Part shown: in pieces, positions 15,840-44,719 of the stretch
Layout: the number at the start of each line of letters is the position of its first letter
How positions within the stretch are numbered: the stretch's first letter is position 1
The notes under the pieces: model-generated
Seen by the model: only the letters and a program-made list of their open reading frames with translations
Told to the model about the DNA's origin: nothing
The model's database searches: none
NCBI GenBank assembly: GCA_963769935.1
Contig: CAVYNY010000007.1
Location: 128,001 to 192,000 of the forward strand
Length of the DNA: 64,000 bases
DNA from: an uncultured delta proteobacterium
GTDB taxonomy: Bacteria; Desulfobacterota; Desulfobacteria; Desulfobacterales; JAFDCJ01
Direction of reading: 5' to 3'
Position numbers and translations under genes: made by a program

Positions 15840-18084
15840 GTGGGAAGGGTATCATCTGTAATGAAAGCCATATTGCCGCCATCGTTGTTGCCGTATCTTC
15901 AGTCTGACAAAAATCACTTTCGACTGGAGATATCCCTAATCTCACGGGAGACTTCATTTCTCGAAAAATCCCCTTTTCCCTTTTTAACGATTAATGAATC
16001 TACCCCTTTTGAACGTCTGTTGGAGGCAAAAATTCTAACAGATGCTGATAACGAAATCAGACGGGTATTTCTTCTGCAGCAATCGGATGACTATCGTCAT
16101 GTACCCGATGAGGTGTGGCCGCTCACCAATGCGGATATCGATCAACGCTGGATAAATGCAGTTAAATTCTATGCTGAAAAATCCAGGGCCGGTGGGTCGA
16201 GTCCGATCCTGCTGGCCGGACAAATCCCCCCAAATGGGGTGCACGCTCCGTTTCAACCCCTGTTATATTGTGCATTCAAAGATGTCTATTTTCATCCGCC
16301 GTGTCCGCAATGCGGCGATTTTCTGCGACTGTGCTGCGATGACATGCTGCTGGCAGAATCTAATCTCACCGCGTACACGACCTCTTTGAGAAGATATCTC
16401 TATTGCCCTAGATGTTTGCAAGAATCGGGCAACACACAGTTTTACACCTATTCCCGCGAAGGAAACGATCCGCCTGCTTTAAAAGATCGACGGGATCTTT
16501 TAAATGACTTTGGAAATCTGATCTTGAAATCCGATTCTTTGGACAATTTCCCGTGTCTCAAATGCCCGGAACTGACCACCTGTTATGGGACCGATAATCG
16601 GGTAATGACCAGGATCGTGCCCTTTTCATTTTACCCATTCCATTTGCTTATTTTCGAGGCGGATACCCTGAGTGCTTCCGATTTTTTAGCGCTTATTTCC
16701 GGTGCCTCATTCGAAACCCTGAAAGCCAATCTGTCCGGCAGACAAACCCGCGGCAGACTCCACTGTTTGCAGGCGTATGAGGACGAGCGATCAACCCATT
16801 CAGGCTATATGTTCGGCTGCGACAGCGAAAAAGGCTTTTTAGAAATTTTATTTCTTAAGCTTTCGTTTCTGGGGGAACTTATTGGAGAATTTTTTTCCGA
16901 TTAGTTCCAATCGCGCCGTTTATTGCGATGCTTCCCTTTCTCTTGATCGCGTGTGGGTCAGATTGGCGGATCAGGCCGGCCTGCTGCCTCAATTTTGGAA
17001 TTTCAACATATCTATCTTGGATATTTGGTCAGATTTGACCCGGCAGCCTCACCTGTCAAAATATCCGCCGGCTTATGGTCAACATTTTTTGGGCATCATT
17101 TGGTTCTATGCCCTATTGGTCAACGATCGCCAATCCGTTGAGAAAGTCCGAGCCGAACTGGATAAATATATACCGGCGCTCGGCGCTCAGGACAGCGTAT
17201 TTTCGGAAATCATCCAGACGCAAGGACCTGGGACGGTTTTTGCGCCGGAAAACATATTTTGGTATCCGGAACCACAACATGTCGCCGAAAATTGGCACAC
17301 CTTGTGGAATAAATCACTTGATACCGGCGCTGCCATTCTGGCCGGCAGTTTCCATTCGGAGCGCAAATGGTCTCCGGAAGCGTTCTGGTTGGATTATAAA
17401 ACGCTCAGAACGGATATCAAAACAGCGTTATTCGGACAGGCGCTTCCCGCGATTCCCACTCAATCTCCGTCGGAGGATCCCCAGATTGCCCAAATTTTAA
17501 ACCGATTGCTTGTTATATGGCGCCGGGAGATGCGGCCACCGGAAACACCGCTCACGGAAGAGGAAACCGACACGGTCATTTTGCCCGGACCGCAAGAGAC
17601 GCCAAACCTGGCCGCAACGGTGATACTCTCGCCGAGCAGCCCGCCGGAGGCACCCGTATCATCCGGCCGTCCGCCGGAAGAAGAAGAAACGCTGATTCTG
17701 CCGTCCGGAACCCGAAATAATGCGCCAACGCCAAAGGCTCCCTTACCGGATGAAGAACTCATTCAGGAAACCGTGATCCTGTCACCGGGAAAAATTGCCG
17801 GGGCACCGGCCCGCGTCGATTCGATAACTCCCGCAACGGGCAGGGAATCTCTTCCGGAAACGATCGTGCTGTCACCGGGCGGACGCCCTAAGGGTCGTCC
17901 TGACTTTGGAGCACCGGCAAACCGGCACGCCAACCGGACGAACCCACGCCGGCAGCCGGACCGGGAGAATAGCCGACCCAATATGGGTGAAGAGAGGAAA
18001 GAAGACGCTTCGGAGGATGACGATATTTTAACTGAAACTATTATATTGCGACCGCAGAAACCCAAAGGCTCCCGAGATGAGTAG
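15840..18084 (+). CDS. T6SS-associated protein: Cys-rich N-terminus, possible degenerate kinase C-lobe, Pro-rich tail with six T-x-x-L motifs; split at a T7 run (16890-16896)
   Basis: ORFs 15840-16904 and 16882-18084 join on removing one T; CPQC, CPRC, CLKC; HFLGIIWFYALLVN; repeated ETVILSP-type motifs. Confidence 0.7.
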
Positions 18085-18808
18085 TCCCATTTCCCTTGAT
18101 AGTCTGGCCCATGAAATCCGGCAAATATATTCAACGGATTCCCGGCAGGGGGAAGAAAGGATCGCCGCCTACCTGCAAGCGCAGTTGGGATCGCTTCCCA
18201 CCGCCGAGAAGGTCGGCTTGTTGGAGAAATTGACCGCGCAATTCGATGCGCCGGTGCCGGGTTCAGCCGACCGGGCGTACCCGGAGGATGAAGTTCTGGC
18301 ACGCCTGTTTTCACTGGTGCTGGGAGACCGGGTTACCGCGGCCGATTTGTCATCCGCTGATTTGCTGCAGCGGTTGGCCGAATCTTTAAATACGATTTTT
18401 GATGCCCTGAACAGACTCGTTGCCGTCATCAATTCCACTTTGTTGGGTAAACAGCAAGGGGATGAAACCATCCGGCAGGTCATTGGCTTTCACCTGGAAG
18501 GTCAGGATCAAACCCAATCTCTCGAGAGCTATCTGGGACAGATCAGCAAAGCCTTTTTGCTGACCCAGCAGGCGTCCAAAAAAGCTGCTGACCAGATAGT
18601 GGGCAAAATTTTGCAGGAGTTGGATCCGGAAAAAATAAAACAGCAGGCCGGGAGCGGAATCAAATTCGGTCCCCTGCGCAAAGCAGAATTTTTTGATGTA
18701 TTTGTGCAGGAAATGAAAAAATGCCGCCAATGGTACGAGTCGGGTCGCTTTATGCAGGATCTGCAAAGAGAGTTTGAAAAAAAATGCGGGCCGAAACTTA
18801 TACAGTAA
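18077..18808 (+). CDS. Hypothetical protein resembling the TagH/Fha C-terminal domain without an FHA domain
   Basis: ILQELDPEKIKQQ...RKAEFFDVF...FMQDLQREFEK recalls the TagH C-terminus; overlaps the upstream stop; precedes tssJ. Confidence 0.55.
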   Translation: MSSPISLDSLAHEIRQIYSTDSRQGEERIAAYLQAQLGSLPTAEKVGLLEKLTAQFDAPVPGSADRAYPEDEVLARLFSLVLGDRVTAADLSSADLLQRLAESLNTIFDALNRLVAVINSTLLGKQQGDETIRQVIGFHLEGQDQTQSLESYLGQISKAFLLTQQASKKAADQIVGKILQELDPEKIKQQAGSGIKFGPLRKAEFFDVFVQEMKKCRQWYESGRFMQDLQREFEKKCGPKLIQ

Positions 18809-18864
18809 AACGGAAAGATCAGGCCGGCAAGAATAATCAATAATTTGCCCAAAGGAGGTGCTCA

Positions 18865-19428
18865 TTGAAAACGTTTGGGAAACTGGTGGTTGTGATTTTA
18901 GTCGCCGTATTCATCTTCGCATGCAGCTCTACAAAAGGAGCAGCTCCGACAAGTACTTCGGAGATTGAACCCGAATCATGGGGTTATCAAAGAGATGCCA
19001 TTCGATTGGTACTGAATGCCGACCCTCAACTCAATGCGTACGACGGCTTGCCTCACACGCTGTATCTTTGCTTATATCAGCTCAAAGATCCCAACGCTTT
19101 CAACCAGCTGTCCGGTGATAAGGATGGGCTTTATCTTTTGCTCAGCTGCAGTGTTTTCGACCCCAGTGTCACCAGTTTTCAACGGTTGACGGTTCAACCC
19201 GGCCAGCAACTTTCCCAGTCTTTCGATCGGGCCGAAGGAACGCGATATGTCGGTATCGCTGCCGGATACTTTAAGCTTGAAAAAGAGAGAATTACCCGCT
19301 TTTTGAAAATTCCGGTGGAAGTCAAACACCGCGGATGGTTATTTGAGAAATATGGTGTTCCAGGGGAGTTAGACCTCAAGGTTACTTTGGGTCCGCAACA
19401 GATTGAAAATGTAGAGACAGTCCAATGA
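18865..19428 (+). CDS. tssJ: T6SS lipoprotein TssJ
   Basis: Lipobox FIFAC; ADPQLN, LYQLKD, YVGIAAGY; AGGAGG SD with TTG start. Confidence 0.9.
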   Translation: MKTFGKLVVVILVAVFIFACSSTKGAAPTSTSEIEPESWGYQRDAIRLVLNADPQLNAYDGLPHTLYLCLYQLKDPNAFNQLSGDKDGLYLLLSCSVFDPSVTSFQRLTVQPGQQLSQSFDRAEGTRYVGIAAGYFKLEKERITRFLKIPVEVKHRGWLFEKYGVPGELDLKVTLGPQQIENVETVQ

Positions 19429-43562: not shown

Positions 43563-43569
43563 GTTAGGA

Positions 43570-43760
43570 TTGAATATTGAAAATTGAAGATTGAATATTT
43601 AAGGAATTCTGTCGTTTTTAATTGTTTAACAAATATCCGATGCTTATTTTTGAAAACCAAGGGTATAAGCGGTTAGAGCGATTGAAATAATGGAACAATC
43701 CAAATTTATCCTATGAAATATACGCAGTATCAGCGAAGCGAATTTCATTAGGACCATCAA
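43570..43760. repeat. Dispersed repeat, copy 2
   Basis: attgaa tandem units, gaatatttaaggaattct and the 57-nt core shared with 12698-12883. Confidence 0.85.
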
Positions 43761-43774
43761 AACGCTAAAAAATT

Positions 43775-44719
43775 ATGTCAAAACCATATTTAGAATGGAT
43801 TGATGAAAATCAGCAGACGCATCGGGTAGAGATAGTTGACAGGATCTGTATGGGGCGAACCTGCAAGGGGATTGACCCGCAGAAGCGGATTCTACTGGGG
43901 TTTCCTCCGGTGTCCAGAGATCATGCCGAGATCAACTACACCGCGGGACATCTTCAGATTACCGATACAAGCATAAACGGTACCTGGATTAATGATGTTC
44001 GGATGGCGGCCGGATCGACCAAAACGCTTTCAGACGGGGATACCATTCGCATTGGTTATTCTCTCTTGCGGGTTGTCTATCCTAAAGTTGCCGCCGATGT
44101 CACCCAAACCCATACCCTTACAGAATTGACAATGGTGTCGGCGGTGGTGGGAGTTGTCACCAGCTTGGTGGCAGATTTACGCGGATTCTCAGCCTTTAGC
44201 CAAACCCATGATTCCGCCGATGTTTACGGCATGATCAATGAAATATTTAAACGGTTCAGCAGGATAATCGAAGACTTCAAGGGCACTGTCAAAGATTACG
44301 CCGGGGATTCCGTCATTGCCTTCTGGGAACATCAATTCGGGGAACCTGCCAAGCAGTCCGAGCTGGCGTGTCGGGCAGCCATTCAACAGATGCAAAGCTT
44401 TGATAAAATCCGGGTTAAACTATCCGGTAAACATGCTGATGTTGAAAACCTTAGGATGGGTTGGGGAATCACCACCGGACCGGTTACCCTCTCTCATTTC
44501 GGTTCACGCACAGCCGATCTGGCAATGGTCGGAGACAGCATCAATCTGGCGAGCCGGTTTTCCGGTATGGCAAACAAAGTCATCCCTGAGAATATTCTCA
44601 TCTGCGCTCAAACAGCCGAACTTATCGGAGATGGTTTGGCGCTCAAGGATCTGGGAATGCATTCAATCCAGGGCCGGCAAGGCAGGGAGCACATTTTTGC
44701 GATAGCCACAGCGTCGTAG
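43775..44719 (+). CDS. FHA domain-class III nucleotidyl cyclase
   Basis: FHA: MGR, VSRDHA, DTSINGTWIN, LSDGDTI; cyclase: ADLRGFS, AGD, GITTGPV, VGDSINLASR, QGR. Confidence 0.92.
   Translation: MSKPYLEWIDENQQTHRVEIVDRICMGRTCKGIDPQKRILLGFPPVSRDHAEINYTAGHLQITDTSINGTWINDVRMAAGSTKTLSDGDTIRIGYSLLRVVYPKVAADVTQTHTLTELTMVSAVVGVVTSLVADLRGFSAFSQTHDSADVYGMINEIFKRFSRIIEDFKGTVKDYAGDSVIAFWEHQFGEPAKQSELACRAAIQQMQSFDKIRVKLSGKHADVENLRMGWGITTGPVTLSHFGSRTADLAMVGDSINLASRFSGMANKVIPENILICAQTAELIGDGLALKDLGMHSIQGRQGREHIFAIATAS

Follow-up and report, generated by a model that had tools for sequence, protein, structure and literature searches.

The T6SS locus and the genes upstream of tssJ

The window analysed here comprises 64,000 nucleotides (nt) from an uncultured delta proteobacterium of the Desulfobacterales lineage JAFDCJ01 (GCA_963769935.1, contig CAVYNY010000007.1, hereafter C7, positions 128001-192000), whose genome amounts to 8.0 Mb on 41 contigs. 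It holds a single type VI secretion system (T6SS), extending from approximately 15860 to 54200, and a search of the genome for a second T6SS found none. Pfam, applied to 53 open reading frames (ORFs) of the window, and NCBIfam identify the core genes tssJ K L M, tagF, impE/tagJ, tssA B C, hcp, tssE F G and clpV on the plus strand (18865..36628). Upstream of tssJ lie gene A, which is divided into two pieces in the assembly (15861..16904 and 16882..18084), and gene B (18077..18808), both on the plus strand. A gene for an FHA-class III nucleotidyl cyclase (FHA-cyclase; 43775..44719, plus strand) is situated between a TssB-TssC fusion gene and vgrG. We propose that A and B, together with a two-FHA protein encoded beyond the window, are the parts of a T6SS Fha (TagH) protein on separate genes, and that with them the T6SS threonine-phosphorylation pathway takes a form that seems not to have been described before. 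Loci, genomes and homologous proteins are identified by the letters L, G and P, respectively, G000 being the source genome.

The known pathway is outlined in PMC13584744 and PMC3953482: TagE phosphorylates TagH (TssL in Agrobacterium), TagG reverses the modification and TagF sequesters TagH. A tagF gene is present at 24989-25789 (plus strand; TIGR03373 of NCBIfam, 50.9 bits with a cut-off of 41.2) and a full T6SS surrounds it, as a preliminary description of this DNA had stated.

Gene B, a stand-alone relative of the Fha C-terminal domain

Gene B encodes a helical protein that resembles the C-terminal domain of TagH/Fha. It overlaps A by 8 nt and is located directly upstream of tssJ. When a wide B profile was aligned by hhalign with five canonical TagH C-termini, a probability of 95.8 and an E-value of 7e-9 were obtained over 149 columns. 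The Pfam family PF20232 (T6SS_FHA_C) matched 68 of 79 members of the B family at E<=0.1, several of them exceeding its cut-off; in the source genome, a profile search with PF20232 found nothing. The distribution of B was followed in 400 genomes of the phylum, in which protein searches scored at most five candidates per genome. Here PF20232 gave 21 matches, namely five canonical TagH proteins and 16 weak matches, all 16 of which coincide with B genes. Canonical TagH and B exclude each other, the five genomes with the former all being non-carriers of the latter. An FHA domain was found neither in B nor in the 79-member family, nor in the 12 longer B homologs that were scanned.

The position of the gene is equally characteristic. 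Among 80 B loci, each viewed with up to 10 kb of flank, B is found in front of tssJ in 77 and behind A in 72, seven of the eight loci without a preceding A lying at contig ends, and the order A-B-tssJKLM-tagF is kept in relatives. In three database proteins (P0401, P0406 and P0472), the threonine tail of A is fused directly to B, which gives the same order of linker and C-terminal domain as in canonical Fha. By these profiles, B and the TagH C-terminal domain are remotely homologous. Its homology to TagH, the coincidence of PF20232 matches with B genes, the synteny with tssJ and A and the tail-B fusions together make a split Fha, with its parts on separate genes, well supported by sequence. 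The preliminary description had already recognised a TagH-C-like gene without an FHA domain that overlaps its neighbour, as well as a distribution of Fha parts over separate genes. Both points hold: the homology it wanted checked by profile search is found, remote as it is, B takes the position of fha, and A supplies a threonine-rich disordered linker.

Two further apparent A-B fusions, in L028 and L018, were dropped owing to N bases at the junction. In the B homologs P0408, P0479 and P0483, an N-terminal three-helix unit is present approximately three times, a repetition that points to a separate small domain.

Gene A, a predicted pseudokinase with a threonine-motif tail

The 3' end of gene A carries six threonine motifs of the type [E/K]-T-[VI]-[IV]-L-S-P (17572..18048, plus strand), which are predicted to become docking sites for FHA domains once phosphorylated. 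The corresponding T-x-x-[ILV] motifs lie at nt 17572, 17617, 17689, 17770, 17860 and 18037. Across the tails of 120 A homologs, 480 such motifs were counted (mean 4.0 per tail, up to eight sites), compared with a mean of 15.6 and a maximum of 26 in 200 shuffles, and the consensus is E-T-V-I-L-S-P. Among the 8453 ORFs of at least 150 residues in the genome, the gene A ORF is the only one with three or more copies of the strict [EK]T-hydrophobic motif. FHA domains prefer a hydrophobic residue three positions after the phosphothreonine (pT+3), and the tail motif fits this preference.

The preliminary description had treated 15840-18084 as one protein with six threonine motifs. The motifs stand, whereas the assembly shows two ORFs, 15840-16904 and 16882-18084, and only the homologs are single proteins. 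The 5' piece (15861..16904) covers a predicted kinase-like N-lobe with a Cys/His-rich, putatively metal-binding insert, as judged from homologs and a model of the homolog P0001. The 3' piece (16882..18084) covers the C-lobe, a conserved helix and the disordered tail, and tblastn with P0001 aligns to the two pieces in two frames. For the 5' piece, 461 longer homologs were found, the closest being 94% identical and 739 residues long, and the 21 closest measure 734-741 residues. The stop codon of the 5' piece comes after four extra bases near 16900, which are absent from two independent contigs, one otherwise identical over 509 bases and the other from an RNA library. The latter contig derives from a relative and is no sign of gene A transcription. 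An assembly error or a change in a sub-strain is the likely origin of the break, given the absence of the four bases from these contigs and the intact homologs with 86-94% identity.

A two-lobed protein-kinase fold, a feature missing from the preliminary description, is predicted for the core of gene A. The AlphaFold model of P0001 has a predicted template modelling score (pTM) of 0.66, with a disordered tail (predicted local distance difference test below 50 from residue 557). A structure search with this model returned protein kinases for all 50 of the matches listed, the best being IRAK1 (Z 13.9, root-mean-square deviation 3.9, 257 residues aligned), and the pseudokinase IRAK3 reached a Z of 13.6. 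Foldseek returned no match at E<=0.001, its top rows being mostly kinase folds. Pfam and NCBIfam found nothing for either piece of gene A or for P0001 and P0120, a PDB sequence search with the gene A profile gave chance matches only, and the ESM Atlas contained no usable match. The insert contains nine Cys, each conserved in at least 119 of the 120 homologs, and one His. A conserved beta3 Lys is absent: no Lys in the N-lobe strands is kept in at least 90% of the 120 homologs, K208 and K333 being the only ones anywhere that are, and the inferred beta3 site is L72 in 113 of 120. At a register taken from secondary structure, the inferred HRD catalytic-Asp column is variable (G in 42, S in 29, R in 22 and D in 9 of 120), and an Asp is present at the inferred DFG position in 103 of 120. 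Given the lack of a conserved N-lobe Lys and the variable catalytic-Asp column, the model suggests that A is likely a pseudokinase. Another secretion machine with a pseudokinase domain is the type VIIb secretion system, in which the likely dead kinase fold of EssB/YukC serves as a scaffold; EssB, however, is a membrane protein, and the machine is an unrelated one.

The kinase-like domain is dispensable in part of the family. Several relatives have lost it partly or wholly and retained helix and tail, and short forms with helix and tail only are found in L026, L035, L038, G143 and G369. Directly upstream of A, a membrane kinase of approximately 720-860 residues with a large extracellular N-terminal region is encoded in L033, L045, L053 and L059 and in G130, G191, G280 and G358; a similar longer kinase with an adjoining small FHA gene is located at G000:C1:80388-83399.

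A two-FHA protein, a kinase and a phosphatase beyond the window

The preliminary description had reported the absence of ppkA, pppA and an intact fha. This is correct for the window, in which Pfam detects no kinase, PP2C phosphatase or canonical fha among the 53 ORFs. As regards kinase and phosphatase it fails for the genome, which contains seven Pkinase matches over the cut-off and a PP2C gene past the window, and their absence is an artefact of the window edge. Likewise, the FHA-cyclase carries the only FHA domain of the window, whereas 20 FHA matches are present in the genome. Further along the contig, 10-31 kb beyond the end of the window, a kinase/FHA/PP2C cluster (C7:201985-223265) encodes a membrane kinase of 545 residues, a LysM-TPR protein, a trypsin-like protease, a kinase-transmembrane-PEGA protein (kinase-PEGA; C7:214127-215311), CsgG-like TPR proteins, the two-FHA protein (C7:221458-222354) and a PP2C (C7:222519-223265). 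Kinase-PEGA, two-FHA protein and PP2C lie 22-31 kb past the window end, and in relatives the cluster abuts the T6SS at either end. The wider cluster, G000:C7:196678-223265 (L001, L002), with two kinases, additionally contains an FHA-transglycosylase, an FHA-FHA-TPR protein, a polysaccharide deacetylase, an MBOAT and an AlgX/SASA protein. As a whole, it is a candidate envelope sensor in place of TagQRST.

The two-FHA protein and A/B have matching distributions. Families A and B occur in 23 of the 400 genomes sampled (about 6%), hereafter carriers, comprising 22 in which B was found by search and G443, which possesses A and a divergent B before tssJKLM. The two-FHA protein was found in 20 of the 400, all of them carriers (19 of the 22 with B, and G443), and in none of the 377 others; the three carriers without a match are assemblies of 160-710 contigs. 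It was also found in 69 of 75 B-carrier handles, or 64 of 70 after five duplicate genomes were dropped; 30 of the 80 B loci were left out of whole-genome follow-ups. Full-length orthologs of kinase-PEGA (E<1e-100) are present in 20 of the 23 carriers and in none of 57 non-carriers picked by handle order, and in 16 of 18 cases the gene lies 2.5-4.6 kb from the two-FHA gene. In the loci viewed, PP2C is encoded beside the two-FHA gene. The latter is located directly before A in L084 (Geobacter) and divergently adjacent to A in G260. Of 19 genomes, eight have it on one contig with B, at a distance of 28-52 kb in seven. A dedicated membrane Ser/Thr kinase, by its distribution, and a PP2C, by its neighbourhood, are linked to the T6SS. 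A kinase or FHA protein elsewhere that serves this T6SS, which the preliminary description had named as evidence against its circuit, is in substance provided by kinase-PEGA and the two-FHA protein, although neither is a canonical ppkA or fha. In FHA1 of the two-FHA protein, the pocket residues G-R, S-x-x-H and N-G are invariant, and FHA2 is degenerate; the C-terminus is a basic amphipathic stretch in 10 of 12 orthologs. The TssB-TssC fusion gene is found directly downstream of the two-FHA gene in L140, L210, L222, L225, L228, L233 and L237, which suggests that the fusion is a sheath-related partner of the two-FHA protein.

The FHA-cyclase

Pfam confirms that 43775-44719 encodes an FHA domain joined to a class III cyclase, as previously described, and 575 homologs were found at E<=1e-20. 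The co-occurrence that the preliminary description expected is seen for A and B with each other and does not extend to this gene. The FHA-cyclase is present in none of the 23 carriers and in two non-carriers, both without A and B; one more distant match (28% identity) is also in a non-carrier. Even among 53 handles picked for carrying B or A, 11 have it, and in four single chromosomes it lies 0.23, 0.62, 2.8 and 3.0 Mb from B. Desulfosarcina widdelii and D. alkanivorans possess A, B and the two-FHA gene, with an FHA-cyclase located far away. Among 80 metagenome cyclase loci (40 of them of at least 5 kb), a T6SS gene is located beside the cyclase in two, and orthologs of the 545-residue kinase and/or PP2C in 22; 20 of the 40 long loci have neither. 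No cyclase was found in any of the 80 B loci within their flanks. A weaker link remains, in that the gene is often part of the kinase-PP2C operon of the same cluster and follows the TssB-TssC fusion in three other loci (L099, L140 and G463). The order two-FHA gene, fusion, FHA-cyclase in L140 and G463 explains the position of the cyclase in the window. Its absence from carriers, its distance from B and its mostly kinase-PP2C neighbourhood mark the FHA-cyclase as an optional component of that signalling cluster rather than as the FHA partner that the T6SS lacks.

The phosphothreonine pocket residues of its FHA domain are invariant. With CyaB (3r5g), CyaC (1wc0) and the guanylyl cyclase Cya2 (2w01), the enzyme shares both metal Asp and the Asn/Arg pair, and these metal and transition-state residues (D134, D178, N257 and R261) are kept in 64 of 64 family members. 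In contrast to these enzymes, it has an N-terminal FHA regulator, an Asp (D174, in 61 of 64) aligned with the ATP-specifying Lys of CyaB and CyaC and the Glu of Cya2, and Ala at the second specificity site (63 of 64). In Cya2, the Glu specifies GTP, and the E488K exchange switches the enzyme to ATP, giving an adenylyl cyclase (PMC5995499). Judging from the Asp at this position and the Cya2 precedent, the FHA-cyclase likely makes cyclic GMP (cGMP) or another product that is not cyclic AMP. Thr119 in the linker is invariant and a candidate ligand of the enzyme's own FHA domain, which may provide a route of self-regulation that needs no T6SS protein. The FHA-cyclase is of interest in itself, as a candidate bacterial FHA-regulated non-adenylyl cyclase, and not as a core part of the T6SS.

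A proposed three-protein Fha switch and its precedents

We hypothesize that a functional Fha is formed here from three proteins, the stand-alone C-terminal domain B, the likely pseudokinase A with its threonine tail and the two-FHA reader, and assign this switch a probability of roughly 0.58. Kinase-PEGA would sense an envelope cue and phosphorylate four to six threonines of the A tail, and PP2C would reverse the modification. FHA1 of the two-FHA protein would dock on the phosphorylated sites, and ties to partners and the membrane may come from FHA2, which is degenerate, and from a basic amphipathic helix at the C-terminus. A would hold B via the conserved helix and the tail, and B would oligomerise and recruit parts of the baseplate and membrane complex, as the Vibrio Fha C-terminal domain does; TagF would damp the switch. 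Upon tail phosphorylation, the covalent links of Fha would be replaced by phospho-dependent ones. In a restricted set of lineages, the FHA-cyclase would be a further reader of this kinase cluster, likely with GTP rather than ATP as its substrate, and it may be switched by its own linker Thr. A more elaborate and tentative version for this T6SS lineage of Desulfobacterota and Nitrospirota, doubtful in our view, is that multi-site tail phosphorylation cross-links two-FHA adaptors and B into a reversible threshold-type condensate, that a second input, from a nucleotide, a metal or the redox state, enters through the metal-binding pseudokinase, and that in a subgroup including the source genome an FHA-gated guanylyl-type cyclase turns the signal into cGMP. 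A second-messenger link is at best a lineage-specific add-on.

The PpkA/TagE, PppA/TagG, Fha/TagH and TagF pathway of the Pseudomonas aeruginosa H1 system, Serratia and Agrobacterium (PMC13584744, PMC3953482) has in common with this locus a membrane Ser/Thr kinase, a PP2C, an FHA reader, TagF and a TagH C-terminal domain just before tssJ. In contrast to that pathway, no single TagH is present, the FHA reader, threonine linker and C-terminal domain being three genes; the linker is placed on a predicted pseudokinase with a Cys-rich insert; and the kinase carries PEGA and is encoded in a separate trypsin/CsgG/TPR cluster. Thus, B differs from TagH by the lack of an FHA domain and A from PpkA by the lack of a catalytic Lys. 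As reported in PMC13389060, Fha nucleates T6SS assembly as a condensate, and in Vibrio cholerae an internally translated C-terminal isoform, Fha-S, drives condensates and binds the baseplate protein TssE. Fha-S is a precedent for B, both being separately made Fha C-terminal halves without FHA. However, Fha-S coexists with full-length Fha of the same gene, whereas no full-length Fha was found in this genome, and B has the extra N-terminal three-helix unit. The Fha of Acidovorax citrulli (bioRxiv 10.1101/2023.12.21.572528) initiates assembly with the same three parts, FHA, disordered region and helical C-terminus (there an amphipathic helix), on one polypeptide rather than three, and the disordered part differs here in its regularly spaced threonine motifs.

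No description of a split-Fha system was found in the literature searched, a set that most subscription papers fell outside. The words 'pseudokinase', 'cyclase', 'Desulfo' and 'Deltaproteobacteria' have no occurrence in a 2026 review on T6SS accessory factors (PMC13584744), and the excerpt of PMC10553843 mentions a T6SS in Seep-SRB1a without describing A/B-type genes. Many T6SSs are without an Fha homolog, and what replaces Fha has been asked (PMC13389060). Pfam or NCBIfam would score the present lineage, from sulfate-reducing bacteria, as 'Fha-less', though all Fha parts are kept on separate genes. For the question of how phosphorylated Fha/TagH sets T6SS assembly in motion, the split lineage is a natural dissection, with reader, phospho-linker and scaffold separable one by one in cultured Desulfosarcina. 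As a lead, the split scaffold and its pseudokinase tail with multiple sites are solid and open to experiment, and they suggest testable functions for unannotated families, including those in partners of anaerobic hydrocarbon oxidisers.

Alternative explanations

Several observations weigh against a three-protein switch. Every binding and phosphorylation step is one that we infer. B itself matches PF20232 with an E-value of 0.049, under the cut-off, and Foldseek with a B model (pTM 0.39) returned nothing at E<=0.001, no solved fold being matched. For the gene A core, hhalign with 41 local kinases gave no alignment (probability 0.3), and because of this failure the residue register behind the term pseudokinase was taken from secondary structure. 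In a quick TssK tree with about half of the B loci, the A/B-type loci form one lineage, far from three canonical-TagH loci, so the co-occurrence reflects one co-inherited island rather than independent events and is silent on binding pairs. Many other FHA proteins of the genome could read the A tail. According to PMC13389060, Fha-S alone cannot start assembly; it needs covalent linkage to the N-terminal half and does not rescue an fha-N strain. Finally, in L070, the one clear exception among the 80 loci, a B homolog (10001-10711) has neither A nor T6SS genes within 10 kb and is located beside a kinase/PP2C/LysM cluster. L070 would also fit a phosphorylation-independent scaffold made of B alone or with A, in which case the co-inherited kinase/PP2C/FHA cluster would serve envelope genes and the A motifs would dock something else. 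The cluster is indeed rich in such genes (LysM-TPR, polysaccharide deacetylase, CsgG-like, MBOAT/AlgX-like); its distance from the T6SS end is 20-39 kb in the source genome, in G380 it is 221 kb away from B, and TagH of V. cholerae, Escherichia coli O157 and Yersinia pestis acts without TagE and TagG (PMC13584744). What makes a pure scaffold unlikely is the absence of the two-FHA gene from all 377, and of kinase-PEGA from all 57, non-carriers, together with the embedding of the two-FHA gene in the T6SS locus of several genomes, where A or the TssB-TssC fusion comes next. The fit of the tail motif to the pT+3 preference of FHA domains points in the same direction.

The circuit of the preliminary description, in which the FHA-cyclase docks on the phosphorylated A tail and its cyclic nucleotide product serves to control or report T6SS assembly, appears quite improbable. 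It can draw on the cyclase gene inside the T6SS locus, with similar neighbourhoods in L099, L140 and G463, on the invariant FHA pocket, on the 22 of 80 metagenome loci with orthologs of the 545-residue kinase and/or PP2C, and on the occurrence of this kinase directly before A in six of the 80 B loci (L008, L011, L013, L014, L021 and L023). However, the proposed FHA partner is missing from all 23 carriers, while its two hosts in the phylum sample are without A and B; it occurs in 11 of the 53 selected handles, 0.23-3.0 Mb from B where both are on a single chromosome; it lies beside a T6SS gene in two of 80 metagenome loci, and none of the 80 B loci contains it within at most 10 kb of flank. In addition, it has a candidate ligand of its own in Thr119, and no cyclic-nucleotide-binding domain was found among the 53 window ORFs scanned. 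That A is instead an active atypical kinase, phosphorylating its own tail in place of PpkA, would agree with the full kinase-like fold of the model, the well-conserved core and the Asp found at the inferred DFG position of 103 of 120 homologs, yet it seems very improbable in view of Leu at the inferred beta3 site in 113 of 120, Asp in only 9 of 120 at the inferred catalytic column, the co-occurrence of a normal kinase and the relatives that dropped the C-lobe or the whole domain and retained the tail. Least probable of all is a system that works in relatives and is decaying, and inactive, in the source strain: A and the single vgrG are both frameshifted in the assembly and approximately 20 kb of other genes separate the signalling cluster from the T6SS, but the extra bases in A are missing from both the otherwise identical 509-base contig and the one of the RNA library, and the intact A homologs at 86-94% identity point to an assembly error or sub-strain change. 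The three-protein switch with B, A and the two-FHA reader is the reading that we retain.

Other genes of the locus

Besides the core, the T6SS comprises the TssB-TssC fusion (41979..43562, plus strand, Pfam), which is present in addition to normal tssB and tssC, vgrG (45283..47526, plus strand) and a DUF2169/PAAR block (Pfam/NCBIfam). The vgrG gene is the only copy found in the genome, and its frameshift in the assembly lies near 45530-45570. TssM (21423-25004) is matched only by the N-terminal IcmF model, with TIGR03348 below cut-off, and its periplasmic part is divergent in the lineage. Downstream of clpV, an unannotated Cys-rich gene and two TPR-methyltransferase genes occupy 36851-40703. 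Desulfosarcina alkanivorans (L239) has these three genes after clpV as well, and an uncharacterised T6SS-linked methylation step is possible. Overlapping the second methyltransferase gene, a 312-residue ORF (40682-41620) without a convincing family match is a possible effector. Between the T6SS and the signalling cluster, low-GC genes for RES- and TIR-domain proteins, joined where the window ends by further genes of TIR-like and TPR type (56939-59149 and G000:C7:190977-193774), are possibly an inserted defence-type island.

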